Source: Selenomonadales bacterium (GTDB lineage Bacteria > Bacillota > UBA994). From it: DNA of 64,000 bases. Below the pieces are notes generated by a model that had not been told where the DNA came from, made no database searches, and worked only from the letters and a program-made list of their open reading frames with translations. The position numbers were made by a program, and so were the translations under genes. Below are positions 9,258-62,198 of the stretch, one piece after another. How positions within the stretch are numbered: position 1 is the first letter of the stretch; each line of letters begins with the position of its first letter. Location of the stretch: assembly GCA_018335585.1 (NCBI GenBank), contig JAGXRZ010000046.1:11832-75831 (forward strand). The letters are read 5' to 3'.

Positions 9258-9333
<76 letters not shown>

Positions 9334-9344
9334 ACTTTGTGAAG

Positions 9345-9420: not shown

Positions 9421-9424
9421 AAAA

Positions 9425-9500: not shown

Positions 9501-9555
9501 GTGCATTTAGTAGTATACTTACTTGTTTAGCTCGCGTCAAGCAAAAAATGAATGT

Positions 9556-9640
9556 TTGTCGCTTGTCACCTGTGGCTCGTCGCTGGAGCCTGGAGGCTGG
9601 CGGCTGGCGGCTTGTGATTTGTGATTTGTGATTTGTGATT
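9556..9640. repeat. Heptamer-array element between tRNA-Val and tRNA-Arg
   Basis: GGAGCCTGGAGGCTGGCGGCTGGCGG followed by CTTGTGATTTGTGATTTGTGATTTGTGATTTG (GTGATTT x4). The GCTGGCG array recurs at 55862-55893. Confidence 0.7.
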
Positions 9641-9644
9641 TGAA

Positions 9645-9719
9645 ATGGCACGCCCGAGAGGAATCGAACCTCCGCACCCGGATCCGGAGTCCGGCGCTCT
9701 ATCCACTGAGCTACGGGCG
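9645..9719 (-). tRNA. tRNA-Arg (anticodon CCG)
   Basis: GCGCCCGTAGCTCAGTGGATAGAGCGCCGGACTCCGGATCCGGGTGCGGAGGTTCGATTCCTCTCGGGCGTGCCA. Anticodon loop CTCCGGA. Confidence 0.75.
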
Positions 9720-9750
9720 CATTTATCACTAAGACAGTATATACGTTTGC

Positions 9751-34292: not shown

Positions 34293-34499
34293 GAGGCCAC
34301 CTCCAAAATGCCGTTAATTCATTCTACCCAGATTATAGCTCTGTTGGCAACACTATCACGTGCCAATGATAGTGTCGCGTGACACTAAAAGGCCTCTCCA
34401 TCCTGCCTATCATCTCAGGCATCCCCATAATCCGAGGGAATTGGCCTCATCTCAGTTGCTTTGGATTTTGCGGTGACGTATACTGAGTGTATCAACTAA

Positions 34500-34700
34500 A
34501 TACGCTGTGGGGTGCCCCTAGCTGTAGGGGTTAAAAGGGAATCAGGTGAGAATCCTGAGCGGTCCCGCCACTGTAACGGGTAGTGCCTATACTTAACCAC
34601 TGTTCGCGCGCGAATGGGAAGGAACTAGGCGCGTCACTCCCGTAGTCAGGAAACCTGCCCCAGAGCCAAGACTCCGTCCTTCGGTCGAAAGGACTAGGTC
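34500..34700 (+). ncRNA. Cobalamin (B12) riboswitch
   Basis: AAAGGGAATCAGGTGAGAATCCTGAGCGGTCCCGCCACTGTAACGG matches the conserved cobalamin-riboswitch core. It lies 5' of btuF. Confidence 0.7.
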
Positions 34701-39711: not shown

Positions 39712-40071
39712 CTAATCGCGCGTGTCTTCTTCCACGCGGATAATAACGCGGTTTGGCATGCACACGATGACTTCGCCTGGACGGCTTTTCTTCCCCATGC
39801 CGATACACACTTTATCCGGGCAATCTGCCTCCACGACACGAATGTACTCCCCGTCTACTTCAATCAGCAGGTCTCCGCGCGTCCCGCGCACCGTAAAGCG
39901 GCGCAGCGCGTCTCCTTGGCGGAGCGGCACTTGCTCTACTTCACGGTTATCCACGGCAATTATCGCCACCCCGCCGGGCCTCACCGTAAAGTGGCGGTAA
40001 AGGACCCAGGTGCCTGCCATAAGCATTACGGCAATTATGGCAAGCAAAATCTTCTTGTCTAGCGCGGTCAA
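39712..40071 (-). CDS. NusG domain II-containing membrane-anchored protein
   Basis: 119 aa. TM anchor then ...GGVAIIAVDNREVEQVPLRQGDALRRFTVRG...VIVCMPNRVIIRVEE. Confidence 0.45.
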   Translation of the reverse strand: MTALDKKILLAIIAVMLMAGTWVLYRHFTVRPGGVAIIAVDNREVEQVPLRQGDALRRFTVRGTRGDLLIEVDGEYIRVVEADCPDKVCIGMGKKSRPGEVIVCMPNRVIIRVEEDTRD

Positions 40072-40089
40072 CGACGCACCTCGCTTTTC

Positions 40090-42195
40090 TTACCTTAGGA
40101 CTCTGATTCCAACTACATACAAGACCACCAGCACCCCAAGCATCACCCCGGCTACCACCAGTGACCCCAACGTGACGTTCTGTGGGTTCCAGACTACCGG
40201 TTGATGTTCGCCGGTTTCGTTTTCGCTAGCCGCCTCATTGCGCATGCGTCGTGTTGTTTGCACCGCCGCATGCCCTACGTGAGTGAAGCTCTCCTCAAGC
40301 CCCTGCTCGAGCCCGCGCGCTTGCTCTATTACTAGGTTTGTCGCGCGGCCCGCCACCTCATAGCCTTCGTCGAGCATGTCGTCTAACTTCTTGACGCGGC
40401 GGAGAACACTATGGGACACACTGCCGCTCCTGTCGTAGAGGTCGCAGATGCCGCCCTCCACACGCGTAACATAGCTACAGCAAAGCCTAAGGAAACCTTG
40501 ATACACAGGGCGATAGAACACCGCCTCGACAGACAGCCACCAAGGCACAGCGCCCTCGCCAAACCGATAGTGGCGCGCCGCTAGGAAAATTAGTACCCCA
40601 AGGGCTACAGGAATAGCCACCGCAACATACGAGCTCGTAGTCCACAGCTTTACGCCAGATAGCTGCTGCATCATTACGCCAAAGTCGACTACGGTGCTCG
40701 CCGCACTCCTGGCCATTAGGCCAATGAAACGCTCCGGGAACAAACCTATCGCCACGATACTAGCCGCAGTAAGGCCGAGCACCGCCGGGATAGCTACGCC
40801 TTCCTTGGTTCCCTGCGTTATTTGCCCTCGGTTCGCGCCTAGGAACACTCCGTAGTAGAGCTTAACGAAGTACGCGGCCGTCAAAGCTGAGCCCAGTATA
40901 AACAGCCATACAGCCCAAGTCAGGAGCCCTTCGCCGTGGTACGAAGCAGCCTTCTCGATGCCGTACTGAATAAGTTTCTTGCTGCCAAACCCGCTAAAAC
41001 CGGGGACTCCAAGGACGGCTAGGGAGGCAATCAAAGTCGTAACAGCCGTAAAGGGCAATACCTTTGCCATGCCCCCAAGTTTGCCTAGGTCGAGTGACTG
41101 GGCGCGCAGGTACACCGACCCCATCATCATAAATAGCCCCGCCTTAAACACAGCATGATTAAAGGCGTGAAACACGGCGGCGGTGTAGGGTAGGCCACCC
41201 TTGGCGCCTAAGTATGCGGCACAGCCGACGGCGAGCATCACATAGCCCATCTGACTGATACTGGAATAGGCCAAGAGGCGCTTGACGTTCCTCTGCAACA
41301 AAGCCATAATCGCGCCGCAAAGAATCGTGAGCAGGGCTACCCAGATAAGTACGAAGCCAATCTGCTGTGGGATGGCGGCGGTTGCCTTCGCCGGAACCGG
41401 CAATGACAATGTAACGGTAAGAACGCTCAGGATGCCGTAGAAGCCGGTCTTGCCCATCACGCCCGAAAGCAACGCCGTGCCGGGGGCAGGCGCCACAGGG
41501 TAGGCGTGCGGTATCCATACGTGCAGAGGAACCAACCCTGCCTTGACCCCAAACCCAATGAGAAACACTAGCGCTACCACATACGGACTGATTGTTCCAC
41601 CCTGCAGTATGTCAAGCACCGGCACAATGTCTGCCGTACCTGTCGTCCAAACCAAGAGCAGAATGCCAAGCAGTAACACCAGCCCTCCGGCCACACCCAT
41701 GTAGAGATAGCTATCGCCTGCGCGCATAGCTTCGTCGTCTTCGTCGTGAATGACAAGCGGATAAGCGGCGAAAGTCATGATTTCAAAGAACAGGAACAAC
41801 GTAAAGTAGTCTCCGGCCAGAAACACACCCAAGCAACCGCTGAGGCTCACCAAGAGGAAGCTCGAAAAGCGCGTCTGCGAGTGACTGCTCTGCATATAGC
41901 TCACGGCATACACCGTGATTAACGCCCATAGCCCTGCTGACAGTAGGGCAAAAAGTGTACCTAGGTCTGTCGGGCGAAAGCTAAGCCCGTAATCGACAAG
42001 GCGGAAGAAGACGAGCTCTAAGCGGTGCGGGGGATTTAGGACATAGACTGCTCCGGCAGCAGCCACTGCCGCCAAAGCAGAGGCAATCGTTATCGCGTCG
42101 CGCAGTCGCTGATTTCGGCGGCAAAGAAAGACCAGAACTGCACCAAGGAGGGGCAGCAGTATGGGCGCGAGGAGCAAGAGGTCTAGCGAACGCAC
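40090..42195 (-). CDS. mrpA: MrpA/NuoL-like proton-conducting antiporter subunit with an atypical C-terminal extension
   Basis: 701 aa. N-terminal ~480 aa are a NuoL/MrpA/MrpD-type membrane core. The C-terminal ~200 aa are a soluble region plus a final TM helix. Confidence 0.65.
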   Translation of the reverse strand: MRSLDLLLLAPILLPLLGAVLVFLCRRNQRLRDAITIASALAAVAAAGAVYVLNPPHRLELVFFRLVDYGLSFRPTDLGTLFALLSAGLWALITVYAVSYMQSSHSQTRFSSFLLVSLSGCLGVFLAGDYFTLFLFFEIMTFAAYPLVIHDEDDEAMRAGDSYLYMGVAGGLVLLLGILLLVWTTGTADIVPVLDILQGGTISPYVVALVFLIGFGVKAGLVPLHVWIPHAYPVAPAPGTALLSGVMGKTGFYGILSVLTVTLSLPVPAKATAAIPQQIGFVLIWVALLTILCGAIMALLQRNVKRLLAYSSISQMGYVMLAVGCAAYLGAKGGLPYTAAVFHAFNHAVFKAGLFMMMGSVYLRAQSLDLGKLGGMAKVLPFTAVTTLIASLAVLGVPGFSGFGSKKLIQYGIEKAASYHGEGLLTWAVWLFILGSALTAAYFVKLYYGVFLGANRGQITQGTKEGVAIPAVLGLTAASIVAIGLFPERFIGLMARSAASTVVDFGVMMQQLSGVKLWTTSSYVAVAIPVALGVLIFLAARHYRFGEGAVPWWLSVEAVFYRPVYQGFLRLCCSYVTRVEGGICDLYDRSGSVSHSVLRRVKKLDDMLDEGYEVAGRATNLVIEQARGLEQGLEESFTHVGHAAVQTTRRMRNEAASENETGEHQPVVWNPQNVTLGSLVVAGVMLGVLVVLYVVGIRVLR

Positions 42196-42208
42196 ATCTC
42201 TGTCCTCC

Positions 42209-43690
42209 CTATTTAGCTAAGAAAAGGGCGTCTGCCGCTCTCTCGGCGAGTTCTAGGGCGATGTTATAGGGCAGTAGGTCGATGACGAGAATAACGAGGC
42301 CGAGGACGACCATAGGCACGAGCATAGCCCAAGGCACTTCTGGCCGCTTAGCTCGCGCCTGTTCTGCGTGCGCTAATCCTTCACCAAAGAAGGCATTTTG
42401 AATAAGTGGAAAATAGTAAATGAAGTTCATTAGTGAGCTAAGCAAGAGCAGCATGACAAACGCAATGCTGCCTGCATCAAGCGCGCCGAGTGCTAACTCC
42501 CACTTAGAAACAAACCCGACTAGCGGGGGCACACCGACCATCGAGAGAGCGGCTACCGTGAAGACCGACATGGTGACGAGCATACTTCTTCCCATGCCTA
42601 CCCACTCTGATACCCTGCGCTTGCCAGTGCGATAGATTACAGACCCTGCCGCTAAGAACAGGCTCGACTTCATAAAGGCATGGGCAAAGATATGAAATAT
42701 CGCTCCAATTAAAGCCCTTTCCTGCAGCAACCCTATACCTAGGAGGATATATCCCATCTGCCCGACGCTTGAGTACGCAAGCCGGCGCTTGATTTCATCT
42801 TGGGTGATAGCCACAGCCGACCCAAGGAAAACCGTTATAGCCGCCAACCAGACCAGTAGATCGTTCCACCCCGTGCGTTGCACCATGTCTAGACCAAAAA
42901 TCTGGTACACGACGCGGATAAGCCCAAACGCACCGGTCTTAAGCATCAAGCCCGAAAGCAAGGCGCTAGCAGGACTAGGTGCTACCGGATGCGCTTCCGG
43001 CAGCCACACATGCAAGGGCACCATACCCGCCTTAATGCCAAAACCGACGAGAAAGCCAAGGAAGGCCAAGGTAGTGAGGCCGGTTACCTCAAGCGGCAGG
43101 CCGCCGGAAGTAAAGGCAACTGTGCCTGCACCCTGAAAGATGGCCATAATCGCAAACAGCAAGGCCAGTCCGCCGATAATAGTGAGAATAAGATACCTGT
43201 AGCCCGCGCGCATTGCTTCCGCGGTCTCTTCGTGGATTACCAGCACATAGGCCGAAAGCGACATCACTTCAAAGAACAAGAAGAACGTGAACAGGTCGCC
43301 GCTTAGGACAACGCCCATAGCGCCCGCTAATGTCAGCACGGAGAAAGGGTAGTACCTGTTTTTGGCATGCTCCTTGACCATATACGCGGTAGAGTAAATC
43401 GTGACTGCCAACCAGACAAAGGAAACTACCGCCGCCACCAGAAACGCTAAATAGTCCAAGCGAAACGAAATGCCAAGCGGAGGCAGTAGCTCCGGAAACT
43501 CGGCAATTAACGTTGTATCGGCCATAATTACATGATAGTGCTGTGCCACGAGCAGAAAAGAAGCTAGGGCCGCCAATACAGAAAGGCCGTTACGCAGCTG
43601 CCAAGAGCGGCGTTCCACGGCGTAGATAACTATAGCCAGGAAAAGCGGCACGAGTATAGGCAAAGTTAACGACCATGAGGTAGGTTGCAT
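42209..43690 (-). CDS. mrpD: MrpD/NuoN-like antiporter subunit
   Basis: 493 aa; proton-pumping membrane-subunit family. Confidence 0.7.
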   Translation of the reverse strand: MQPTSWSLTLPILVPLFLAIVIYAVERRSWQLRNGLSVLAALASFLLVAQHYHVIMADTTLIAEFPELLPPLGISFRLDYLAFLVAAVVSFVWLAVTIYSTAYMVKEHAKNRYYPFSVLTLAGAMGVVLSGDLFTFFLFFEVMSLSAYVLVIHEETAEAMRAGYRYLILTIIGGLALLFAIMAIFQGAGTVAFTSGGLPLEVTGLTTLAFLGFLVGFGIKAGMVPLHVWLPEAHPVAPSPASALLSGLMLKTGAFGLIRVVYQIFGLDMVQRTGWNDLLVWLAAITVFLGSAVAITQDEIKRRLAYSSVGQMGYILLGIGLLQERALIGAIFHIFAHAFMKSSLFLAAGSVIYRTGKRRVSEWVGMGRSMLVTMSVFTVAALSMVGVPPLVGFVSKWELALGALDAGSIAFVMLLLLSSLMNFIYYFPLIQNAFFGEGLAHAEQARAKRPEVPWAMLVPMVVLGLVILVIDLLPYNIALELAERAADALFLAK

Positions 43691-43705
43691 AGATTGGCCT
43701 CCAAT

Positions 43706-45172
43706 TTATCTCACGAAGAGATGAGCTGTCTGGCGTACCAGAGGAACCATCAGTGAAGGGAACAAACCAAAGAAAAAGACCATGCCCACCAGCACGGCGA
43801 TAGGTGCCAACACACTCATAGCCGGTTCTTTAACTTGCACCTCGCTATCGCTACCAAAGAAGGCGGAGATGATTATGGGAAAGTAGTAGGCTGCGTTAAG
43901 CAGGCTGCTGATGAGGATAAACACGGCGAAGATCATCATATCCGCGTCAAGTGCCCCAAGCGCCAAGTACAGCTTTGAAATGAACCCAGCCGTACCCGGG
44001 ATGCCCACCATGGACATTGCGCCGACAGCGAAAGCCGCGAAAGTAAGCGGCATCCTGCGTCCTAGGCCATTAAACTGCGACAGCTTCTTGATTCCGGTCT
44101 GGTGGATTATTACCCCGGCGGTTAAGAACAAAAGAGACTTCATTACGGCGTGGTTAAGGATGTGTAGCACACCGCCTTCAATAGCGCGCTGACTGAACAA
44201 GCCAAACCCTAGGAAGATATATCCCACTTGCGCTACCGTGGAAAAGGCCAGTAAACGCTTGACGTTATCCTGTACCATGGCAAAAACCGAGCCTACCATC
44301 AGCGCGCCTGTCGAAAGCGCCAAGAAAAGGTGTCGTATCGGCAACAGCGCAAAGATTTCAAGCCCTAACGCTAAGTAGGCAATCCGCATAAGCGCAATGA
44401 TGTAAACCTTTACGACTAGACCGCTGAGCAAAGCGCTAGAGGCGGTAGGGGCGTTAGAATGCGCGTCGGGCAGCCACACATGCATAGGGAAGAGGGCGGC
44501 TTTCACGCCGAATCCTACTACCATTAGGCCTATGGCAGTCAGTAGATTTAAGGGGTACTGTGTTGCTGTTATGGTCAGCGTAGCGCGAATGTAGTCCATA
44601 TTGAGATGTCCGGTGATCATAAAGATTAAGGCTATAGAAAAGAGCAGTCCTCCGGAACCTAGGGCGCTTAGGACTAGGTAGCGGAAGCTCGCTTCCACGC
44701 TCTCTTTAGTGCCCTTGATGGCGATAATGGCGATAGCCGCGAGCGAGCTAATCTCGATGAAAACAAAGAGGTTAAACAAGTCCCCAGCCATTACCATGCC
44801 CTGCATCGCCGCAGTAAGGAGAAGGATGAGAGTGAAATATGCACTGTTGTTGCGCACCTCGCGCGGGCCACAGACGGCAAACCAAGAAATAATGAGAGAT
44901 ACGGTGGCAATAACGAGGGAGGAAAAGGCCGCGAAAACGTCCACCCACACCACAATTCCATATGGCGCCGGCCAGCCGCCCACGGGATACCTGAGTGTGC
45001 CCTGCGCTAAGACCTGCATCGTCATACGTAGGGCTAGGGCAAAGGCCAACAGGCCTGCGCCCAAGAAGACCGCATTTACGGCAGACTCGCGCTTACCAAA
45101 GAGCGGAGTAACAAAGGCGGCAAGGAGCAAGACAGCGACAATAAGTACAGGCGCATGTGTCACACTAGGCAT
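43706..45172 (-). CDS. mrpD: MrpD/NuoM-like antiporter subunit
   Basis: 488 aa; same family as the neighbouring MrpD. Confidence 0.7.
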   Translation of the reverse strand: MPSVTHAPVLIVAVLLLAAFVTPLFGKRESAVNAVFLGAGLLAFALALRMTMQVLAQGTLRYPVGGWPAPYGIVVWVDVFAAFSSLVIATVSLIISWFAVCGPREVRNNSAYFTLILLLTAAMQGMVMAGDLFNLFVFIEISSLAAIAIIAIKGTKESVEASFRYLVLSALGSGGLLFSIALIFMITGHLNMDYIRATLTITATQYPLNLLTAIGLMVVGFGVKAALFPMHVWLPDAHSNAPTASSALLSGLVVKVYIIALMRIAYLALGLEIFALLPIRHLFLALSTGALMVGSVFAMVQDNVKRLLAFSTVAQVGYIFLGFGLFSQRAIEGGVLHILNHAVMKSLLFLTAGVIIHQTGIKKLSQFNGLGRRMPLTFAAFAVGAMSMVGIPGTAGFISKLYLALGALDADMMIFAVFILISSLLNAAYYFPIIISAFFGSDSEVQVKEPAMSVLAPIAVLVGMVFFFGLFPSLMVPLVRQTAHLFVR

Positions 45173-45536
45173 GTCGTTTACTCCTTAGGGCGATAATCTT
45201 GTCTGCGTCAATTGTGCCATACTGCTTATGCAGGAGCACAACCAGAGCTAAAGCGAAAGCAGTGAAACTTACGGAAATAACTATACCTGTAAGAATAAGT
45301 GCTGAAGGTACGGGGTTGACGTACAGCGTGACGCCTTCTTTGAGAATAGGCGCCTGCCCGCCGCGAATATAGCCAATAGCGACAAAGAACAAGAACAGCG
45401 ACGTGTCCATGATGTTCATCCCCATGATTTTTTTAAGCAGGTTGTTGTGAGTAAGCATAGTATGAAAGCCAATAATAAAGAGCATTACAGACGTTAAGTA
45501 GTAGATGTTCATCCATAGTCGCTCAATGATGGCCAT
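45165..45536 (-). CDS. mrpC: MrpC/NuoK-like subunit
   Basis: 123 aa, three TM helices; NuoK-like. Confidence 0.65.
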   Translation of the reverse strand: MAIIERLWMNIYYLTSVMLFIIGFHTMLTHNNLLKKIMGMNIMDTSLFLFFVAIGYIRGGQAPILKEGVTLYVNPVPSALILTGIVISVSFTAFALALVVLLHKQYGTIDADKIIALRSKRHA

Positions 45537-45963
45537 CCGGTCCTGCGCCCCCTTCCAGCAGTTCTTGGAACAGCGTAAACACCGTGCCGGCGACCTTTGC
45601 TCCGATGCCTAGTGTCACCAGCAAGATCATGCCGCTGCTCCAGAGGCGACCCGGTTCCCCGGTCGGAAATACTCCCTGGTTGGTAAGGAAGTGTCGTCCT
45701 ACCAAGATACCCACAAGGCCCGCGCCTACGTAGATTAGTGCTCCGCCTACCTCAAACAGGAGCGATGTCTCGTGCTTTAGGCGGTGCTTCTTGGCCGTAA
45801 ACCGATAGACTAGGCTATAGAAGATAAAGCTCGCGCCGATGATGGTGCCGCCGGAAAAGCCCCCACCTGGCGAAAGGTGGCCGTGAAAAAGAATGTACGC
45901 GCCAAAGAGCTGCGTGGCTGGGATAAGCACTCTCCCAAGCATCTCTAGAATCATGTCATGCAT
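45523..45963 (-). CDS. mrpB: MrpB-like subunit
   Basis: 146 aa; ...GHLSPGGGFSGGTIIGASFIFY is the MnhB motif. Confidence 0.6.
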   Translation of the reverse strand: MHDMILEMLGRVLIPATQLFGAYILFHGHLSPGGGFSGGTIIGASFIFYSLVYRFTAKKHRLKHETSLLFEVGGALIYVGAGLVGILVGRHFLTNQGVFPTGEPGRLWSSGMILLVTLGIGAKVAGTVFTLFQELLEGGAGPDGHH

Positions 45964-46237
45964 GTTCGTACCCTCCGTAGAGCGCGGCCCCTACAGCTAC
46001 GACCGCCACAAACAAGACGGTGGCCTCGCCTAAGGTGTCGTAAGCGCGGTAGTCGATGATAATCGCGGCGATAGTGTTAAGTGCACCGGTATCGCGCACA
46101 CTATCGGATAGGTACTTCTGCATAATGCCTTGGTGAGCGGGAGCGCTCGCGTCGCCATACAGCGGCATCTCCGCAACCATCAGCGTCAGCAGCACGCCGA
46201 TGCCAAGCAAAATTATTACGGTTATGGTCTTTCTCAT
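45956..46237 (-). CDS. MrpB-related small subunit (MbhE-like)
   Basis: 93 aa, two TM helices. Confidence 0.5.
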   Translation of the reverse strand: MRKTITVIILLGIGVLLTLMVAEMPLYGDASAPAHQGIMQKYLSDSVRDTGALNTIAAIIIDYRAYDTLGEATVLFVAVVAVGAALYGGYEHA

Positions 46238-46602
46238 TCTTCGTGCCTCCCGGTGCGGCTGATGGCGGCAAGAAACAAGAGCGAGGTTGCCCCGGCACCG
46301 ATGGCGGCTTCAGTAATGGCGACGTCAGGCGAATGCAGCTGTTGCCAGATAATGGACATGACCATGCTGTAGGCACCGAAAATAATCGTCGCGCTGAGCA
46401 GGTCCTTAGTGCGCGCCACGACTATAGCACAGACCACCAGAAATGCCAACAAGAGGACATTAATTGCCGCTAGCATGCTTGTCCTCCCTTCGCGTGCGGT
46501 AAACGGCTCGCGCCATATAATGCGCCGCTGCCGGGGTTGTAACCCACAAAAAGACAATAAGCAGGATGACCTTAAGCACAAGGTATACGTTGCCGCCCTC
46601 AA
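46234..46602 (-). CDS. MrpB-domain (DUF4040-like) small subunit; probable true start near 46480
   Basis: MLAAINVLLLAFLVVCAIVVARTKDLLSATIIFGAYSMVMSIIW. The N-terminal ~40 codons of the listed ORF overlap mrpG. Confidence 0.45.
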   Translation of the reverse strand: MRAATYTLCLRSSCLLSFCGLQPRQRRIIWREPFTAREGRTSMLAAINVLLLAFLVVCAIVVARTKDLLSATIIFGAYSMVMSIIWQQLHSPDVAITEAAIGAGATSLLFLAAISRTGRHEE

Positions 46603-46768
46603 AGAATGTTAGGCCGACCAATACCAGTCCGGCACCCAAGGTATCACATTTTGTCGTAGCATGCATGCGCGAGAGCGCGTCGGGGAAGCGCAGCAGACCG
46701 ACCGTGCCGGCCGTGAAAAAGAACAAGCCCGCAAAGAGAAACGCTGTGCCAATAAGGGTTGCGATCAT
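46460..46768 (-). CDS. mrpG: MrpG/MnhG
   Basis: FTAGTVGLLRFPDALSRMHATTKCDTLGAGL. Confidence 0.65.
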   Translation of the reverse strand: MIATLIGTAFLFAGLFFFTAGTVGLLRFPDALSRMHATTKCDTLGAGLVLVGLTFFEGGNVYLVLKVILLIVFLWVTTPAAAHYMARAVYRTRREDKHASGN

Positions 46769-46781
46769 AGTTTCGTACCTC

Positions 46782-47051
46782 TCATACGATGGTGCCCCGT
46801 TCGATGTAGCGAGCCACTCCTATAGTTAAAAGGAAGCTTATTAGCGCGTAGACGATGGCGACGTCAAGGTAATACGGGACTTCATGAAAAATGTAGCCAA
46901 TGAGCATCAGCACGACTACCGTTTTTGTGCCGATAACGTTAATCGCCACAACTCTATCAGCGGGCGTCGGGCCCACAACTGCGCGATACAAGGACGCGAA
47001 AGTGAGCAACATGAGCCCTAAACACGTAACCAAAAGTACGGTTCGTTCCAT
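46782..47051 (-). CDS. mrpF: MrpF/MnhF
   Basis: 89 aa; ...RVVAINVIGTKTVVVLMLIGYIF. Confidence 0.65.
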   Translation of the reverse strand: MERTVLLVTCLGLMLLTFASLYRAVVGPTPADRVVAINVIGTKTVVVLMLIGYIFHEVPYYLDVAIVYALISFLLTIGVARYIERGTIV

Positions 47052-47545
47052 TAATGTCGCCTCTCTATCTCTGCCAGCAAATTCTCGATGTGCCAGCCGG
47101 CAAGTCCGGCCGCGGCGCCGTCCGTCAGGGCATGTACGACGAAGTTTCCTTGCGCCGGCGCTTCGACCGAGATTGTGCCCGGCGTCAGGGTAATGCTGTT
47201 CGCCAGGAATACGCGCATCATCGGCTCCTTGAGCTTGCTCTCGTGCGTGACAAACTGCGGCTTTATGTCTAACTTGCGCGCGAAAGCGAGTTCGGCAACT
47301 TGCACGGAGGCCTTGATGACGTCAACGATTAAGTACCTAACATAAGTCAGCCAAGCGGAAAGGTTTGTACGGCTGATGTGCAGGTCATTGGTGAAACTAA
47401 GCAGCAGGTCGCGGTTAACAAAGGTTACTAACCCCGCCACCAGCCAACCGGTAATTACAGACTGAACATCAAAACTTTGCGCAAACAGCATCCAAAGCAG
47501 GAACAAAGCCAGAGTCCAGCCGAATAGTCGAGTATACCGCGACAC
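47051..47545 (-). CDS. mrpE: MrpE/MnhE
   Basis: 164 aa; MnhE family. Confidence 0.65.
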   Translation of the reverse strand: MSRYTRLFGWTLALFLLWMLFAQSFDVQSVITGWLVAGLVTFVNRDLLLSFTNDLHISRTNLSAWLTYVRYLIVDVIKASVQVAELAFARKLDIKPQFVTHESKLKEPMMRVFLANSITLTPGTISVEAPAQGNFVVHALTDGAAAGLAGWHIENLLAEIERRH

Positions 47546-47625
47546 AAAAATCCCCCCACAAAGTTAAGAGCTACCACCAACATGACGGCAGCCCTTATAG
47601 CTCACTCTGTTCTCGCGCGTCTATC

Positions 47626-48465
47626 CTACCTGTTAGGTGCCTTTTCTAATGCATCGATGACTGCTGACACAAAGCCTTCACTCGAGCCGGTCGCGCCCGA
47701 GACGGCGTCAACTTCTGGGTCTTGCTCGCGGATTACGGCCTTAGCCAGCTCCACGAAGGCGGGATTAGCATACTCCGGCGTGTCTTGATGGGCCAAAACC
47801 CTGACACTTTCCACTCGGCCGGACTTGACGGTGACTAAAACTCTAACCGGCCCAAACAAGCCGCTTCCTTCACCCTGATACTCGCCGTCAGGAATAGTCG
47901 CGAGGTCGCGCACAAATCTGTCGACCGGAACAGGCGGCGCTGCGCCTAGGACGTGCTGTCCAAACATGAGCAGTGCATTCCTCACCCCGGCAGTTACGCC
48001 ACGTACCGACAATGTCGCGCCGGAGATGGCTTGGACATCGCCTCCCACCGCCAGTGGGTCGCGCGCCGTCTTGCCGGTGAACTGACGCAGAAACGCCGAG
48101 GCCGCTACCCGGTCTCCGATTCCCGGCGTCTCGCGGTGCCCGGTAATGCGCACGCCCTGCGCCGCTCCGGACATGTCGACTGCGACTAACAGGTTGATAG
48201 GACCTGCGTAGCCGCTACCGGCGCTCTGCATTATTGCTCCCACGGGCTTTCCGTCTTTAGTGGCTAGAAAGAAGGTGACACCGTCACGCGTTGTTTCCTC
48301 GAATCTGTCGGCGACAGGCAAAAGATCGCCGAGTGCCCGTTGTAGCTCAGCTTGTTTGCGCTCGGCTATGACGACGCTAGTGACAGAGTGAGTGGCCGCT
48401 AAGGCTGCTCCCGCAATAGCGCAGATTAGAGCGAGTGTGACGCTTAGCTTAAAAACTTCCCTCAT
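47626..48465 (-). CDS. Membrane-anchored protein with two FMN-binding domains (RnfG/NqrC/PplA-like)
   Basis: Domain 1: GYAGPINLLVAVDMSGAAQGVRITGHRETPGIGDRV...ISGATLSVRGVTAGVRNAL. Domain 2: ...VKSGRVESVRVLAHQDTPEYANP...DAVSGATGSSEGFVSAV. The Ser/Thr in the S/TGAT motifs are the covalent FMN-attachment sites. Confidence 0.7.
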   Translation of the reverse strand: MREVFKLSVTLALICAIAGAALAATHSVTSVVIAERKQAELQRALGDLLPVADRFEETTRDGVTFFLATKDGKPVGAIMQSAGSGYAGPINLLVAVDMSGAAQGVRITGHRETPGIGDRVAASAFLRQFTGKTARDPLAVGGDVQAISGATLSVRGVTAGVRNALLMFGQHVLGAAPPVPVDRFVRDLATIPDGEYQGEGSGLFGPVRVLVTVKSGRVESVRVLAHQDTPEYANPAFVELAKAVIREQDPEVDAVSGATGSSEGFVSAVIDALEKAPNR

Positions 48466-48530: not shown

Positions 48531-49559
48531 TTAACCAAGAGAAAGATGTCCGCGCGAGTAAAGCGCCAAAAACTCTCGCGCTGTGCGCTCCCACGTAAAA
48601 ACGCGACTGCGCAAGAACCCGGCCTGTGCCATTGTCTTCTGTAGCATGGAGTTTGAGATTAGCGCGAGCAGCCCGTTAGCCCACGCCTTAGCGTCAGCAA
48701 ATTGGCGAATAAAATGTCCGGCTTGCGGTCCTACCACCTCGGGCACGCTCCCGCGCAGGCTAGCCACAACCGGTAGCGCCGTGGCCATTGCGGGTAGACA
48801 ATCGTGTCCCGCCGCGGCGCGGTCTTGTGTCGGGTAAAGGAACATGTCGGCCGCTCGATAGATTTTTGGCTGAAGAGGGGTGCTGCCAACGACCAAAATC
48901 TTAACGCGGCTCAGTTCTGTGCCAAGCGGACAATTTTGCAGTAGCTCCAGCCCTTTTGGGTCATGCGCTGTGTGGGCCAACAACAGAACCTTCTCGTCCG
49001 GCTCCACTTCCCAGAGCAGGCGCTGCTTTTGTCGCTCCCGCATAAGTCCTCTATCGCCGTGTGCGGGAAGGAAGACCGACCCATCAACACCGGGGTAAAC
49101 GACGTTCACGCGCAAGCGCAAGCCATAGAACCTCCCGATAAAGAGGTTCTTTAAGAAGAAGCTATGGACGACTACTTGGTCGACTAAGCAGAGCGACAGG
49201 CGCAGGTCACGGCGTGAAATTGCGTCTTGGGCAAGGGGCCGCAGCGACTGCAAGTGGAGCAGCACATAGCCTTGATAGGTTTGGCGTAAGGCGGGCACTA
49301 GCCACGGGCAGTTCTCAACGTGCACTGCTGTCGGCCGCGTTTCCCGAAGTACCTGTCGCAGCACTTCCGCAGAAAAAACGAGCGGCCAACGGTATAGGCG
49401 TATTCCGAGCACCTCCGGTGCTTGCATGCCGGCCGGCAACAGGATCGATACCTCTATTCCTTGGCGCGACAGCAGTGCGGCCACCGTAAAGACTGACGGA
49501 TGTGACTCGTCCACTTCGAGCGTCGAACCGTCCGGCGGCAGTACATATAGAACTTTCAC
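48531..49559 (-). CDS. GT4-family glycosyltransferase
   Basis: ...ILVVGSTPLQPKIYRAADMFLYPT... The listed ORF 48531..49790 extends through the repeat element. A GTG start at 49559 after GGGGAG fits the family length. Confidence 0.65.
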   Translation of the reverse strand: MKVLYVLPPDGSTLEVDESHPSVFTVAALLSRQGIEVSILLPAGMQAPEVLGIRLYRWPLVFSAEVLRQVLRETRPTAVHVENCPWLVPALRQTYQGYVLLHLQSLRPLAQDAISRRDLRLSLCLVDQVVVHSFFLKNLFIGRFYGLRLRVNVVYPGVDGSVFLPAHGDRGLMRERQKQRLLWEVEPDEKVLLLAHTAHDPKGLELLQNCPLGTELSRVKILVVGSTPLQPKIYRAADMFLYPTQDRAAAGHDCLPAMATALPVVASLRGSVPEVVGPQAGHFIRQFADAKAWANGLLALISNSMLQKTMAQAGFLRSRVFTWERTAREFLALYSRGHLSLG

Positions 49560-49599
49560 CCTGCACTCCCCCAACGCGCACTTTACCTCAGTGTACGCA

Positions 49600-49810
49600 G
49601 GTGAGCGGTGGGCGGTGAGGCGCGAGCCGCCAGGAAATTGTCGCTTGTGGCTTGTCGCTTGTGGCTTGGGGAGAGGCTTTAGGCTTGAGGCTTGAGGCGT
49701 TAGAAGAACGGGCTTTGAGCTTTGAGAGCACGCTCTGTCTCCACGAAGTGCGAAGTGCGAAGTGCGAAGTGCCCGTCCTCTGCGGAGCACGAAGCACGCT
49801 CTCTCTACCA
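49600..49810. repeat. Modular heptamer-array intergenic element
   Basis: GTCGCTTGTGGCTTGTCGCTTGTGGCTTG, then TTTAGGCTTGAGGCTTGAGGCGTTAG, then TTTGAGCTTTGAGAGC, then CGAAGTGCGAAGTGCGAAGTGCGAAGTG. Confidence 0.75.
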
Positions 49811-51884: not shown

Positions 51885-53059
51885 CTGATAACCTGCATCT
51901 CCTTGCCTACAGTGGCAAACGCATCGAGTGCGTAGTCGAGGTCAGCTTCTGTGTGTGAGGCCGAAATCATGGCGCGAATGCGCGCTTTACCCTTAGCGAC
52001 GGTCGGGAAGCCGATCTTGGTGGCAAATACTCCCCTCTGGAATAGGCGGCGACTCATTTCGCCTGCGACCTCGGCCTCACCTAGCATCACCGGCGTTATG
52101 GGCGTCTCGCTGCTCCCAATGTCAAAGCCTAGGTTACGCATGCCTTCTTTGAAATAGCGCGCATTACTCCACAAGCGCTCTACCGGCTCACCGCTCGCGG
52201 TAAGGATTTCGATGGCCTGCTTCGTGGCCGCCACATCAGGTGGAGTGAGGGCCGAGCTAAAGAGGAAGGGCCGAGCGCGCTGCTTTAGGTACTCGATCAG
52301 CCGAGCGCTCCCCGCAGCAAACCCGCCGATTGTGCCGATAGCTTTCGAGAAAGTGCCGACTTCGACGTCAACCTGCCCATGCAAATGGAAGTGGTCGACA
52401 ATGCCGCGCCCGTTCTCGCCGAGTACCCCTTCGCCGTGGGCATCGTCGACCATGGTCATTGCCCCATAGCGTTTGGCGACGGCCACGATTTGGGGTAGTT
52501 TGGCTATGTCTCCGTCCATACTAAAGACGCCGTCGGTAATTACTAGAACTCGCCCGGCACCGATGCCCTTAAGTACCGCTTCAAGCGAATCCGGGTCATT
52601 GTGCTTATACACCTTAATTTCGGCGCGGCTTAGGCGTGCTCCGTCGATAATGCTAGCGTGGTTTAGCTCGTCGGAGACAATGGTGTCGTCCTTGCCGACT
52701 AAGGCGGGAATGACCGCGAGGTTAGCCATAAACCCCGATTGCAGCGTAAGCGCAGCCTCGACGCGCTTAAACTTGGCTACTTCCGCATCAAGCTCAGCAT
52801 GCAGGCTCATAGTGCCGGCGATGCTGCGCACTGCCGACGGGCCGACGCCAAACTGAGCTATTGCTTCTATGGCTGCCTGCCGTAGCCGCGGGTCGTTGGC
52901 AAGGTTTAAGTAGTTGTTGGAGCATAGGTTGAGTTTCCTTTGTCCACCGATTACAATCCATGCGCCCTGCGCACTTTCTATTACCTTGATGTCGTTGTAG
53001 AGTCCGCTGCTTTTAAGCTCCTGCAGGATTTCGTCAATGAAGTGCATGTTGTCTTGCAT
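51881..53059 (-). CDS. kbl: Glycine C-acetyltransferase / 8-amino-7-oxononanoate synthase family (Kbl)
   Basis: ...[16 protein letters not shown]...GTFSKA... PLP-lysine region; 392 aa. Confidence 0.75.
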
Positions 53060-53072
53060 GTGGGACCTCCTT

Positions 53073-53245
53073 GCTTGTTGGTCGCTTGTGGCTTGTCGCT
53101 TGTCGCTTGAGGAGAGACTTTAGGCTTTAGGCTTTAGGCGTTAGAAGGACGGGCTTTGAGCTCTGAGCTTTGAGCTCTGACCGAAGGAAAGCCGGGTGCT
53201 ACCGCGACACCGCTCTACTGAGCACTGGTCACTGAGCACTGGGCA
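53073..53245. repeat. Modular heptamer-array intergenic element (best-preserved copy)
   Basis: GTCGCTT x4, linker AGGAGAGAC, TTTAGGC x3, linker AAGGACGGGC, TTGAGCT/CTGAGCT x4, core GGTGCTACCGCGACACCGCTCTAC, then TGAGCAC/TGGTCAC/TGAGCAC/TGGGCAC. It starts about 10 nt upstream of the kbl RBS. Confidence 0.8.
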
Positions 53246-53248
53246 CCC

Positions 53249-53623
53249 CTACTTCCTCTCTTTACCCGACAAGTGCTTTTCATAAATGGTTTCTTTGAGC
53301 TCCTCGGAGCGCAAGCTACGCCAGTCTACTTCGGTAGAACCGCGTCGGGACGCAGGGTCATACTTCAGGGAGAGCTGTTCGGCTAAGAATGTCAGCACCA
53401 TGCGATGCAAGCTTTCGTTGCGCTTTTCGCGCGAAAGATGACGCGTCACCCTAACCTCCGCGCCGGTCTGTTCGGCCACGGTGCGACGCACGGCATCCTC
53501 AGGCGTCTCGCCCTCTTCCACGTCGCCCCCAGGCAGTGCCCATACGCCCCCCGGCGGTCTAACCATAAGTACATGATGGCCGTTAAGGACAATAGCTTGA
53601 ACGTAGATTCTGCGATAATCCAT
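53249..53623 (-). CDS. NUDIX hydrolase
   Basis: ...GGDVEEGETPEDAVRRTVAEQTGAE is the Nudix box. Confidence 0.7.
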   Translation of the reverse strand: MDYRRIYVQAIVLNGHHVLMVRPPGGVWALPGGDVEEGETPEDAVRRTVAEQTGAEVRVTRHLSREKRNESLHRMVLTFLAEQLSLKYDPASRRGSTEVDWRSLRSEELKETIYEKHLSGKERK

Positions 53624-53711
53624 GTTCGTCTCCCCTTTCCATCATCTTCTCTAAGCTTAGCATACCAGAGGGCGTAAGGCTGTGCAACGCGCCGCGCAAG
53701 GCGCGAGGAGA

Positions 53712-54000
53712 CTGTCGCTTGTCGCTTGTCGCTTGGGGAAGCGCTGAGCGGTGAGCTGTGAGCTGTGAGGGTGCGCCGTGGCAATCATGAATCAGGAATC
53801 GTGAATCATGAACTAGGGGGCGGGATCAGGCTCTAGGCTTTAGGCGTTAGGCGTTAGAAGCTTTGAGCGGTGAGCTGTGAGCTTTTTGCCACTGCGACAC
53901 CGCCCTACTGGGCACTAGGCACTGAGCACTGGGCACTCCATCAACCCCTCGTCCTCCACGAAGTGCTAAGTGCCAAGTGCAAAGTGCATCCCCACAACAC
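53712..54000. repeat. Modular heptamer-array intergenic element (longest copy)
   Basis: GTCGCTT x3; GTGAGCT x3; GAATCAT/GAATCGT x4; TAGGCTT/TAGGCGT x4; GTGAGCT x2; core GCCACTGCGACACCGCCCTAC; GGGCACT/AGGCACT/GAGCACT/GGGCAC; then AAGTGCT/AAGTGCC/AAGTGCA. Confidence 0.8.
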
Positions 54001-54161
54001 TTGAACATTCCCCTCCTTAGGTTTAATATATCGTTGTATGCGTAAAGCGGGAGAATCATGCGCAAAGCTGAGCAAAACGCTACCAAAAGCATGGGAAAGC
54101 AGTTTAAGGCACTTTACGCGACCTAGCGCAGCATTAGGACGGACGATAGGAGGCTCTCGGG

Positions 54162-55649
54162 TTGAGCACTAAAAAAGACATCGCGCATATGGCACTTCTG
54201 CGCCGACAGAGCCGCACACCACTCTTTGACGCGCTGCGCAACTACGTGCGCGAGGGCACGCTCTCTTTCCACGTCCCCGGCCACAAACACGGCAAGGGGC
54301 TACCGGAGTTTACGCGCTTTGTCGGCAAGAATGTCATGAACATTGACCTCACCATCATGCCTGACCTCGACAGCATCTACAAGCCGCATGGGCCGATAAA
54401 AGCAGCACAAGACCTCGCCGCCGAGGCCTTCGGTGCAGACTACGCCCATTTTCTCAGCAACGGCACGACCGCAGGCATTCACTGCATGTTGATGTCTACC
54501 TTGCGCCCGGGCGACAAGTTTATCGTACCGCGCAATGCCCATAAATCCGTGATTTCAGCGATGATTTTAACCGGGGCTGAGCCTGTATACATCCAGCCCT
54601 ACGTGGACAACTACCTAGGCGTAGCCATGGCCATTACCGCCGACGAAGTACGCCAAGCACTGCGCCAACAACCCGACGCCAAGGCCATATTTGTTATTAA
54701 CACGACCTTCTACGGCATGGCGCCGGAGCTAGAGCGCATTGTGGAGATTGCGGAGGACTACGAGATACCGGTGCTAGTTGACGAGGCTCACGGAGCCCAC
54801 CTTAAGTTCCATCCCAGTCTGCCACTGTCAGCGATGGAAGCTAAGGCGGACATGGCTGCCCTAAGCACGCATAAGCTCCTTGGCTCCATGACCCAGAGCT
54901 CCCTGCTACTCACGCGGGGCGACCTGATAGACGCCCAGTATGCGAAGACGACCCTGAATTTGACGCAGACTACCAGCCCAAGCTACCCGCTATTGGCCTC
55001 GCTAGATATGGCGCGCAAACAGGTCTTCTTCCGCGGGCAAGAAATGCTTACACACGCCATTAACCTCGCGAACTGGGCGCGCTACGAAATCAACAATAAC
55101 ATCCCCGGCCTCTATGTGTACGGCAACGATATGGTCGGACAGCCGGGCTGCTATGAATATGACCCTACTAAACTGTGCATAAACGTGAGAGCCTTAGGCA
55201 TCTCCGGCTTTGAAATGGAGCGCATCCTGCGGCAAGGGTTCCACATTCAAGTAGACCTCTCCGACCTGTACAACGTCCTATGCGTAGTCTCGATTGCGGA
55301 TAGCAAAGAAGCCGTGCGCACCCTCGTGCATGCCCTGAGCGAGATTGCGCGCAAATACCAAGTTCAAGACGTGCGCGAGCAGCCCATTGAGCTGCCGCCG
55401 CTCCCGGCACTTGCCTATCTGCCGCGCGAAGCCTTCTATGCCGAGACTAAGCGCGTGCCTTTAGATCAGGCTAAGGGGAAAATCGTGGCCGAGATGCTTA
55501 TGGCTTACCCTCCCGGTATTCCGCTTATCTGTCCGGGAGAAATCCTAACCGAAGAGATTATCGACTACGTGCGCATGCTCGAAGAGGCAGACGCACAAAT
55601 ATACGGCACCGAAGACCCTAATGCGGAGTATATAAAGATTGTGAGGTGA
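54162..55649 (+). CDS. Orn/Lys/Arg decarboxylase-family PLP enzyme
   Basis: ...LSFHVPGHKHGKG...DLTIMPDLDSIYKPHGPI...STHKLLGSMTQSS is the OKR_DC_1 major domain. Confidence 0.75.
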   Translation: MSTKKDIAHMALLRRQSRTPLFDALRNYVREGTLSFHVPGHKHGKGLPEFTRFVGKNVMNIDLTIMPDLDSIYKPHGPIKAAQDLAAEAFGADYAHFLSNGTTAGIHCMLMSTLRPGDKFIVPRNAHKSVISAMILTGAEPVYIQPYVDNYLGVAMAITADEVRQALRQQPDAKAIFVINTTFYGMAPELERIVEIAEDYEIPVLVDEAHGAHLKFHPSLPLSAMEAKADMAALSTHKLLGSMTQSSLLLTRGDLIDAQYAKTTLNLTQTTSPSYPLLASLDMARKQVFFRGQEMLTHAINLANWARYEINNNIPGLYVYGNDMVGQPGCYEYDPTKLCINVRALGISGFEMERILRQGFHIQVDLSDLYNVLCVVSIADSKEAVRTLVHALSEIARKYQVQDVREQPIELPPLPALAYLPREAFYAETKRVPLDQAKGKIVAEMLMAYPPGIPLICPGEILTEEIIDYVRMLEEADAQIYGTEDPNAEYIKIVR

Positions 55650-55651
55650 GT

Positions 55652-55893
55652 GGGAATCATGAATCATCAATCGTGAATCGTGAACTACTGGGGCTCTCAG
55701 CTTTTAGTCGCTAGGCATTAGGCTTTAGGCTTTAGGGGCAGGCTGGAAGGTGGCAAGGTTAAAGGGGTACCGGGCACTACCGCGAGATCGCCCCACTGGG
55801 CATTGGGCACTGAGCACTAATCTACGAAGCACGAAGCACGAAGCACGGAGCACGCGCTCCCCTCTCCTGGCGGCCGGCGGCTGGCGGCTGGCA
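55652..55893. repeat. Modular heptamer-array intergenic element
   Basis: GAATCAT/CAATCGT/GAATCGT arrays; TAGGCAT/TAGGCTT x3; core GGGCACTACCGCGAGATCGCCCCAC; TGGGCAT/TGGGCAC/TGAGCAC; CGAAGCA x3; GCTGGCG x3. Confidence 0.75.
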
Positions 55894-55897
55894 GCTC

Positions 55898-56752
55898 CTA
55901 CCGCTCCGCGGCATGCGCCAAAGCATTTAAAAAGCGCTTCAGGCTAATCTTGCCGCCATATGGCGCGCTGTGCTCCACGTGACGCATTTCGCGCCGTACC
56001 TCGGCAAAATCAAAGAATGTGGCAGCGTAGTTTTCAAAGCGAGGGTGCGCGTAATCCTCGAGCCCTAGCGCAGCGAGGTGATGCAGAGCCGACTGCACGG
56101 CTCGCCGCATGCGCTGTTCAGCCGCTTTTTGCGCGGTGAGGCTATCGCCGGCGATATGTAGAAGCAAGTCTTTCATGGAAAGGGTGTCCCGTGTGCGGGC
56201 GCGCGCAATAAACAGGGCCGCGTCTTCTAGGTCGCGTGCGCCGGATTCTGCCCCAATGCCTAAGTCGTGTAGCAGCGCCCTGATTTTTAGCCTTGTCTTA
56301 TCTGCAACATCCGCGCTTGGCTGAGAAGTCGAAACCCCAAGCTCGGCCATCGAGCGGTAAATACTACTTACCGTGCGCTTAAGGGCTAATGTTTCGCACA
56401 CTTTGGCCAGGACGGCGCGCACTTCGCGCGAATTTATTGGTTTGTGGATAAAGAAATCGATGCCGGCTTCGTAAGCAGCCTCTACCATTACCTTAGCCTG
56501 TACCTGGGAGATCATCACAAAGGAAGGGCTGACGGCGCCGGACAGGAGACGCACCAGCTCGATGCCGTCCATATCGGGCAGCAGCAAATCGACCAAGACA
56601 ACATCTACGGCGGTAGAGAGCAGTGCCAGACGTGCTTCTTGCCCGGAACTAGCCGAGCCCGCTACCACGCCTAACCCGCTGTCTTGGATTATCTCCTGGA
56701 GCATACGCCTGACGGCAAAATCATCGTCGACTACAAAGAATCGGTATTGCAC
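55898..56752 (-). CDS. Response regulator (REC domain plus YcbB/GlnL-type C-terminal domain)
   Basis: MQYRFFVVDDDFAVRRMLQEIIQ...VDVVLVDLLLPDMDGIELV. Confidence 0.65.
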   Translation of the reverse strand: MQYRFFVVDDDFAVRRMLQEIIQDSGLGVVAGSASSGQEARLALLSTAVDVVLVDLLLPDMDGIELVRLLSGAVSPSFVMISQVQAKVMVEAAYEAGIDFFIHKPINSREVRAVLAKVCETLALKRTVSSIYRSMAELGVSTSQPSADVADKTRLKIRALLHDLGIGAESGARDLEDAALFIARARTRDTLSMKDLLLHIAGDSLTAQKAAEQRMRRAVQSALHHLAALGLEDYAHPRFENYAATFFDFAEVRREMRHVEHSAPYGGKISLKRFLNALAHAAER

Positions 56753-61972: not shown

Positions 61973-61988
61973 GTGTTTCCTCCTTTAG

Positions 61989-62198
61989 TGAACGTGGTGA
62001 AGTGCTCAGTGCTCAGTGCCTAGTGCTCAGTGCTCAGTGCCTAGTGCCTAGTGCTCAGCAGAGGTAAAGGTGCAAGGTAAAAGGGGAAAGGGTCCCACTG
62101 CGACACGGCTCTACTGGGCACTGGGCACTGGGCACTCCCTCTACTAGGAGCAAGGAGCGAAGCAAAAAGCTCCGTCCCTTTCCTTTTGCTTCCTTCAT
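61989..62198. repeat. Modular heptamer-array intergenic element with a terminal hairpin module
   Basis: (GTGCTCA/GTGCCTA) x8, then core CCCACTGCGACACGGCTCTAC, then TGGGCAC x3, then hairpin GAAGCAAAAAGCTCCGTCCCTTTCCTTTTGCTTC. It starts about 5 nt upstream of the aminotransferase RBS. Confidence 0.8.

Follow-up and report, generated by a model that had tools for sequence, protein, structure and literature searches.

The short tandemly repeated repetitive (STRR) sequences STRR1-3 of heterocystous cyanobacteria are built from the heptanucleotide units CCCCAGT, TTGGTCA and CAACAGT, and Mazel and colleagues reportedly suggested in 1990 that cyanobacterial STRRs have a role in chromosome structure. 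Other intergenic repeats are mosaics. The BOX elements of Streptococcus pneumoniae and the bacterial interspersed mosaic elements (BIMEs) of enterobacteria are dispersed between genes, in operons or near promoters or terminators; the order of their modules is fixed, the internal ones vary in presence and number, and neither element is known to have coding capacity. The mycobacterial interspersed repetitive units (MIRUs) are intercistronic tandem repeats in operons, with units of 40-100 nt, a biased orientation and frequent overlap with stop and start codons for translational coupling. Among the long simple sequence repeats (SSRs) of many genomes, heptamers are the most abundant unit, and polymerase slippage with a 7-nt contact has been proposed (PMC4679880; PMC4692102). 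Three heptamers occur in Calothrix, Nostoc has GGGGAYT and Xanthomonas has GGGAATC, and sister species differ extensively (PMC4692102). Beggiatoaceae, Microcystis and some Bacteroidetes carry the heptamer TAACTGA, which in Microcystis is often mixed with other heptamers and in Elizabethkingia lies within larger heptamer assemblages of nearly identical intergenic regions (PMC4679880). Here, heptamer arrays are described from a stretch of 64,000 nt of a Selenomonadales bacterium (contig JAGXRZ010000046.1, positions 11,832 to 75,831), referred to below as the window. Seven intergenic loci, among them the space upstream of kbl that was flagged by an earlier note made from the sequence alone, are strings of short arrays of 7-nt units. 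These elements probably form a lineage-specific, non-coding mosaic intergenic repeat family, largely selfish or neutral, that evolves by slippage and ectopic recombination.

The period of the arrays is sharply defined. Tandem Repeats Finder reported period-7 arrays of 2.1-8.3 copies, some of them also at period 14 or 21, at all seven loci (9153-9253, 9582-9642, 49600-49772, 53081-53246, 53713-53988, 55654-55896 and 62001-62136), and none outside these loci in the 64-kb window. The usual array has 3-4 units (about 21-28 bp), and higher-order repeats of 14 and 21 nt within arrays match at 93-100%. A self-match scan of the window returned 15 segments at period 7 and nine at period 14; periods 3-6, 8-13 and 15 gave no segment. 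With a looser threshold of 12 matches in 14, 26 arrays were found, all of period 7 and together covering 770 nt, as against a mean of 0.07 and a maximum of 2 in 30 composition-preserving block shuffles. All arrays are intergenic and fall in seven of the approximately 25 window gaps of at least 80 nt, a density of seven elements in 64 kb, clustered at 49-62 kb. The seven loci with 7-nt periodicity reported in the earlier note are therefore real, and every heptamer listed there is present; ACGAAGC, AGGTAAA, TCAGCAC and CCAGCAG/AGGAGCC extend the list, and the window lineage has at least 12 unit types. Loci C-F (listed below) are 100% identical between the window and four contigs of different metagenomes and assemblers, so the arrays are not an assembly artefact.

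The copies, their sites and their cores are as follows, "forward" being the strand that reads TTGTCGC ... core ... TGRGCAC.

9120 to 9256, minus strand (reversed): copy A, with TTTGAGC/TGTGAGC, ACTCAGC and TGRGCAC arrays and a CCCTCTACTAGGAGC tail (CTCTAC-TAGGAGC), read on the minus strand; between tRNA-Phe, with the array directly after the encoded CCA, and the putative tRNA-Gly promoter.
9556 to 9645, plus strand: copy B, with TTGTCGC, CTGGMGG (CTGGCGG) and TTGTGAT arrays; between the 3' end of tRNA-Arg and a promoter-like TTGACG-17-TATACT (9540-9512, minus strand) upstream of tRNA-Val.
49600 to 49810, plus strand: copy C, with TTGTCGC/TTGTGGC, TTTAGGC, TTTGAGC, CGAAGTG and GAAGCAC arrays and without a core; between the stop of a DsbD-like gene (49824) and the probable true start of a glycosyltransferase gene (GTG, 49559).
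53073 to 53248, plus strand: copy D, the flagged copy, with four TTGTCGC units, a GGAGAGAC linker, three TTTAGGC units, a AAGGACGGGC linker, four TTTGAGC/TCTGAGC units, the core and four TGRGCAC units; it fills the entire space from the NUDIX stop (53249) to the ribosome-binding site (RBS) of kbl (53066-53072), both genes being on the minus strand.
53199 to 53218, plus strand: core of copy D, CTACCGCGACACCGCTCTAC.
53712 to 53990, plus strand: copy E, the fullest in the window, with TTGTCGC, TGTGAGC, AATCRTG, TTTAGGC, TGTGAGC, core, TGRGCAC and NAAGTGC; between the divergent promoters of the NUDIX and decarboxylase genes.
53889 to 53908, plus strand: core of copy E, an exact match.
55652 to 55897, plus strand: copy F, with GAATCRT, TTAGGCW, a degenerate AGGTAAA box, a degenerate core, TGRGCAY, ACGAAGC and CTGGCGG; where the decarboxylase gene (stop at 55649) and a response-regulator gene (stop at 55898) converge.
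55777 to 55796, plus strand: degenerate core of copy F, five mismatches.
61999 to 62194, plus strand: copy G, with eight inverted units (AGTGCTC/AGTGCCT, a period-21 higher-order repeat), an AGGTAAA box, the core, three TGGGCAC units and a CCCTCTACTAGGAGC tail; between the stop of the upstream gene (62195) and the RBS of an aminotransferase gene (61979-61984).
62095 to 62114, plus strand: core of copy G, one mismatch.
53217 to 53246, 53907 to 53937 and 62113 to 62136: TGRGCAC arrays in the window.

The loci have more in common than their period. The 20-nt core CCACTGCGACACCGCYCTAC has three window copies with two mismatches or fewer, where 0.02 are expected, besides the degenerate one in F; it is thus present in four of the seven loci, which falls short of the claim that most copies carry it. 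A 22-mer across the AAGGACGGGC linker is common to loci C and D with one mismatch (0 expected), and CCCTCTACTAGGAGC is exact in both A and G. The linkers quoted in the earlier note do exist, but in loci C and D only. The modules follow one master order (TTGTCGC, TGTGAGC, AATCGTG, (TTTCCGC), TCAGCAC, TTTAGGC, TGTGAGC, AGGTAAA, core, TGRGCAC, tail arrays), in which the core is a unique sequence of about 35 nt that ends in CTCTAC. In about 20 copies the module strings are colinear and each is a subset of this order, so the modules do not occur in freely different combinations, as had been suggested; locus A is wholly inverted, and G alone has an internally inverted array. Judged by their strings, single copies appear to derive from one master arrangement by deletion or expansion. 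A single phase-coherent ancestral array, with linkers that are multiples of 7, was considered and rejected, because inspection of D and E by eye showed that the registers shift between modules.

The same grammar holds in copies from elsewhere. A metagenome scan with a 28-nt degenerate core, in a collection incomplete for this organism (the window's own copies were not returned), gave eight loci, six of them unique, all with the grammar of the window copies; they came from sibling samples of those that hold the window genes and have no overlap with the window. One of these sequences, which are designated here by L numbers, is L079, and it reads TTGTCGC, AATCGTG, TCAGCAC, TTAGGC, TGTGAGC, AGGTAAA, core, TGRGCAC. 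The order taken from the window only was scored on the independent copies L078-L086 by a manual count from the module strings, and about 75 module pairs were concordant versus two discordant. Exceptions to the order are L085a, where the tail block precedes the core, and L080b, where CCAGCAG-type arrays flank the TGRGCAC array on both sides. In 11 aligned core copies, the core columns are near-invariant and a conserved AAGGGGAAC-GGGYR leader is held in common. Furthermore, YCTAC (often CTCTAC) stands directly before the TGRGCAC, TAGGAGC/CCAGCAG and GAAGCAC arrays on the forward strand of A, C, D, F, G and L080. The common order, core and linkers identify one dispersed modular family, as had been proposed, rather than unrelated low-complexity tracts, and since independent copies have the same grammar, the dispersed unit is the mosaic of 90-300 nt.

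Compared with the described systems, these elements are closest to the STRR-type heptanucleotide SSRs. In both, 7-nt units are repeated in tandem, mostly in 2-8 copies, above chance and above other unit lengths; they lie almost entirely between genes, in both orientations, with several unit types per genome and mixed heptamer assemblages within one intergenic region. In both, unit number and sequence vary widely among close relatives, some sister taxa lack the arrays and slippage has been invoked. The statement that the element is unlike any catalogued repeat therefore fails, as tandem intergenic heptamer arrays are a described class (PMC4679880; PMC4692102). The differences from STRR/heptanucleotide SSRs lie in the host lineage, in the unit sequences, in the lack of G-quadruplex-type units, in the arrangement of the arrays in one order around a core of about 35 nt with shared linkers, and in the dispersal of the whole mosaic of 90-300 nt. 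Because units and host differ, the elements are the same kind of repeat as STRR1-3 and not a member of those families. The nearest unit is TGRGCAC, which when rotated (ACTGGGC/ACTGAGC) is identical in six of seven positions to STRR1 (CCCCAGT, reverse complement ACTGGGG), a lead and not a test. The rotated unit also shares ACTGA with the Beggiatoaceae heptamer TAACTGA, which may be a coincidence or a hint of a common sequence preference. With BOX and BIMEs, the family shares the dispersed intergenic mosaic, the fixed module order and the variable internal modules; the modules of the former are dyad-symmetric hairpins of 35-60 nt, whereas those found here are 7-nt arrays without covariation and, outside locus G, without fold excess or stable stem-loops of the BOX/BIME type. 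CRISPR arrays, with repeats of 24-48 nt and unique spacers of similar size, are excluded by contiguous 7-nt units. The array sequences had no match in the literature, and repeats are not mentioned in the NPL-UPA2 genome paper (PMC6305446) or the Lithacetigenota paper (PMC9751293). We found no earlier description of a module order that is fixed genome-wide around a unique and conserved core, of the occurrence of such arrays in this lineage, or of these unit sequences.

The turnover of the elements can be followed among relatives of the host. Proteins of the window are identical to those of an NCBI assembly labelled 'Selenomonadales bacterium' and cluster at >=90% with proteins of 'candidate division NPL-UPA2 bacterium' and 'Firmicutes bacterium', and the host is taken to be an NPL-UPA2-like, Bacillota-affiliated, uncultivated lineage of serpentinite springs. 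NPL-UPA2 itself is uncultivated, lives in serpentinite springs and has a reported metagenome-assembled genome (MAG) of about 1 Mb (PMC6305446). Syntenic loci in relatives were found through kbl homologues. L092 (97.0% nucleotide identity over 11.2 kb) has four gap openings relative to the window, two of which are exact 7-nt unit indels within element C, where L092 lacks one CACTTCG unit and has an extra CTGGCRG unit; its array touching the kbl RBS is of the AATCRTG type, and that of the window is of the TTGTCGC type. In L086 (about 87%), the DsbD-glycosyltransferase site holds a different mosaic with the outer blocks in common; its inner part has the core, AGGTAAA, TGRGCAC and ACTCAGC in place of the CGAAGTG block, lacks the TTTAGGC and TTGTCGC blocks, and closely matches window locus A. 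L087 and L088 (about 78%) have other units at the same sites (GCGGAAA, GCTTACA, GGCTCCT, GGTTGAC) in a consistent order, and L090 (about 69%) has a single array. No arrays were found in 18-19 kb of synteny in L093 and L094 (about 76%), a lineage in which the NUDIX-kbl gap is 12 nt, convergent gene ends overlap and the divergent -35 boxes are separated by about 44 nt. The array-bearing relatives have period 7 only, and none of 73 unrelated bacterial loci, about 550 kb in total, has two or more arrays. Compact empty sites in one close lineage indicate that the elements are dispensable. The earlier suggestion of a recombining element agrees with presence, absence and module swaps at orthologous sites of close relatives, and its suggestion of a slippage origin with exact 7-nt indels between strains of 97% identity. 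The decarboxylase-NUDIX divergent junction is variable in content as well: L087 (6488-9537) and L088 (6651-9474) have a Peptidase_M14 gene of 817-824 aa there, L090 (7290-9336) has a Mur-ligase gene, the window (53624-54161) has element E only and L093 has 193 nt only.

A probable course of events would account for these patterns. Replication slippage would lengthen and shorten the arrays, and the many similar arrays would provide homology for ectopic recombination or gene conversion. Recombination would copy blocks between intergenic regions and delete internal modules, yielding a mosaic without any transposase. The elements would persist where they are harmless, i.e., between stop and RBS, upstream of -35 boxes, at convergent gene ends and in tRNA spacers, and selection would act mainly on orientation, so that the C-rich, G-poor, weakly folding strand is transcribed in operons. 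Several points weigh against this account. It draws on a genome coverage of the 64-kb window and fragments only, and ectopic recombination is deduced from the mosaics, not observed. More than 15 unrelated-looking units share a length of 7 nt, for which slippage by itself does not account, and the recurrent YCTAC ahead of several arrays does not follow from this course of events either. Functional constraint is another possible reason for the near-invariant core in 11 copies and for the fixed module order, and the orientation bias described below shows that there is some selection. Finally, four assemblies from different samples are identical, so that over short times the arrays do not behave as hypervariable; population hypervariability, also considered, is ruled out by the same assemblies.

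The sites of the elements confirm the promoter-proximal, gene-end and inter-tRNA placement given in the earlier note and add intercistronic sites:

Between co-directional genes, starting 2 nt past the stop and leaving 4-16 nt ahead of the following RBS: C, D, G, L080, L081 and L084.
Between divergent genes: E and L078.
Between convergent stops: F.
In tRNA spacers, from directly after the encoded CCA: A and B.

The arrays are found either upstream of -35 boxes or in the space from stop codon to RBS, and none lies within open reading frames (ORFs) or readable promoter spacers, the places where the unit number of contingency SSRs switches expression in phase variation. Good -35/-10 pairs can be read in the sequence 10-25 nt downstream of loci A, B, E and L079, of which the one adjacent to B was also returned by a consensus scan; the scan gave no promoter-like sites within the window elements or L078. 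At locus E, the NUDIX promoter (minus strand) has its -35 at 53682-53687 and its -10 at 53659-53664, and the decarboxylase promoter (plus strand) has its -35 at 54001-54006 and its -10 at 54024-54029; both are kept in L093, only about 44 nt apart. The tRNA loci belong to a seven-tRNA cluster (8783-9720, minus strand: Leu, Cys, Gly, Phe, Asp, Val, Arg). At least two promoters seem to lie within the cluster, TTGACG-17-TATACT (9540-9512) and TTGCAC-17-TAATAT (9116-9088), each just downstream of a heptamer element. It had been stated that two copies start 5-10 nt from an RBS, which is right for kbl (about 9 nt) and wrong for the copy placed at 61989, whose first clear array is at 62001, 16 nt from the RBS. 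Nor does the kbl promoter have to lie within the element: given the relative with a NUDIX-kbl gap of just 12 nt, the NUDIX promoter most likely drives transcription of kbl as well, element D being inserted between the two cistrons, and dependence of kbl on a promoter within element D is improbable. The divergent intergenic region of L078 is almost all element, so a transcript there must cross the element or begin in it.

Orientation is strongly biased. Between co-directional gene pairs, 10 independent loci have the reverse orientation versus one or two with the forward orientation. The forward strand is G-rich (G/T-rich), against the skew of the flanks, and the reverse strand, which is C-rich and weakly folding, is the mRNA sense in operons. 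Avoidance of structure near the RBS and avoidance of G-rich transcripts are plausible reasons, as far as can be inferred. Like the MIRUs, the elements are intercistronic tandem repeats in operons with an orientation biased relative to transcription; unlike them, they have 7-nt units and also occur outside operons.

Such a bias would fit arrays that act at the RNA level, a reading that we regard as unlikely. Transcribed arrays would then be platforms for a single-stranded RNA-binding protein with a footprint of about 7 nt (e.g., a cold-shock/OB-fold protein), or unstructured leaders rich in C and A through which the translation, mRNA stability or Rho-dependent polarity of the following gene is tuned. 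Besides the weakly folding C-rich strand in mRNA sense, the arrays within 4-16 nt of an RBS in many copies and the L078 transcript speak for it, and it has been proposed that CspB binds heptamer repeats and that TAACTGA repeats act in translation (PMC4679880). However, the copies upstream of -35 boxes (A, B, E, L079) need no transcription and F lies between convergent stops, the array type at the RBS of the same gene differs between strains of 97% identity, and the whole element is missing from a relative with the same operon. Structural covariation is lacking too: RNAalifold on 11 core regions gave eight pairs without compensatory change. Folding z-scores are near 0 on both strands, except for locus G (z = -5.7, from the inverted arrays), which alone has strong hairpin potential. 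In a search of Rfam 15, only tRNAs and a cobalamin riboswitch passed the gathering score in the window, and nothing reached E<=1 in 53000-56000. An RNA gene or structured element is rejected on these grounds (no Rfam match, no fold excess outside G, no covariation).

It is quite unlikely that the family is actively mobile or templated, that is, that a dedicated enzyme inserts copies (a transposase, as for MITEs and REPINs) or that a short template is copied reiteratively by a reverse transcriptase (RT)-, telomerase- or primase-like enzyme, with YCTAC as an anchor. The elements resemble MITEs and REPINs in being short, non-coding and dispersed, with presence/absence polymorphism between strains. 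Mobility is consistent with the presence or absence of copies at orthologous sites and with a core that is strongly conserved among dispersed copies; a templated origin would suit the equal unit length whatever the sequence, the recurrence of YCTAC before TGRGCAC, TAGGAGC/CCAGCAG and GAAGCAC arrays, and the G/T-rich forward strand. Against it, no terminal inverted repeats were found in the copies, and no inverted repeats at all in C, D and F; comparison of filled and empty sites gave no target-site duplication, and the copy ends are variable, for which reasons a MITE or REPIN is rejected. Gene calls at the syntenic loci include no transposase or RT gene. Slippage accounts better than unit-by-unit templated addition for the single-unit indels and for the higher-order repeats of 14 and 21 nt. 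Phage origin is rejected as well: the core is absent from viral contigs, and (TTGTCGC)x3, found in 19 viral contigs, is in each a lone ordinary microsatellite without the composite. A 17-mer of the core, a pattern that lacks specificity at this length, was scanned against a genome-contig collection to which the source genome does not belong; it gave 73 single matches in unrelated taxa, about the chance number and with no heptamer arrays nearby; these were discarded.

Very unlikely, in our estimate, is a role as DNA-level protein-binding arrays that would organize the nucleoid, insulate transcription units or modulate promoters in an UP-element-like manner, three units being 21 bp or two helical turns. 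Such a role would fit the usual array length of 3-4 units, and it would fit loci A, B, E and L079, which stop 10-25 nt short of a -35 hexamer. However, more than 15 unit sequences would need many proteins or one sequence-non-specific protein, only seven of the approximately 25 longer gaps have arrays, and a close relative whose promoters are conserved has no element at these sites.

A more radical idea, and in our view a highly improbable one, is that the arrays are written by a dedicated reiterative synthesis or repair activity (polymerase, primase or RT-like) with a 7-nt register, possibly starting at YCTAC, and that the same activity is behind the heptamer excess in cyanobacteria, Xanthomonas and Beggiatoaceae. 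If this were true, array-bearing and array-free sister lineages would let the responsible gene be identified by comparative genomics. The dominance of 7-nt units in long bacterial tandem repeats has been a question since the STRRs (about 1990) and the genome-wide heptamer excess (2007), and this locus adds an independent and phylogenetically remote host, a small-genome uncultivated serpentinite-spring lineage. Its sister lineages, at 76-97% nucleotide identity and with the same, different or no elements at the same sites, are a natural experiment, in which filled and empty sites permit the comparison of gene content (replication and repair genes) and expression. The fixed module order and conserved core show that heptamer arrays can move together as one composite.

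An assembly or sequencing artefact of the MAG has a negligible probability, for although several contigs terminate within arrays and assembly is thus disturbed by them, loci C-F are identical in the four contigs mentioned above, and related yet different elements were found in JGI, ENA, NCBI and Logan assemblies. The contigs L003, L004, L092 and L086, from several assemblers, begin or end within heptamer arrays or elements, so the repeat family fragments assemblies of this organism. In practice, such arrays break metagenome assemblies and lengthen MAG gene calls or create false ones, as in the call of 419 aa for a glycosyltransferase of 342 aa. The 419-aa ORF (48531-49790, minus strand), also a JGI gene call on L001, runs through element C. 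The glycosyltransferases of relatives have 342-353 aa, and a GGGGGAG RBS and GTG start at 49559 are conserved; from these lengths and the conserved RBS and start, the true gene is probably 48531-49559, with 342 aa. A 43-aa JGI 'gene' at 264-395 of L002 (about 53657-53788 of the window) overlaps the left part of element E and is almost certainly spurious.

A second repeat family was seen beside the heptamer arrays. L085 has a palindromic, REP-like element of about 50 nt (GTAGGGACGTGCC...GCACGTCCCTAC, two hairpins), which has no copy in the window; the first copy (361-411) is nested in a heptamer element, and the second (4701-4712) begins at the contig end. Elsewhere in the window, the cobalamin riboswitch (34493-34676, plus strand, 109 bits) lies in a divergent intergenic region of 561 nt without heptamer arrays. 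Window positions 40001-48000 have a strong positive plus-strand AT skew (0.14-0.21) over a minus-strand Mrp/Mnh antiporter operon, which probably results from the codon or amino-acid composition of membrane proteins.

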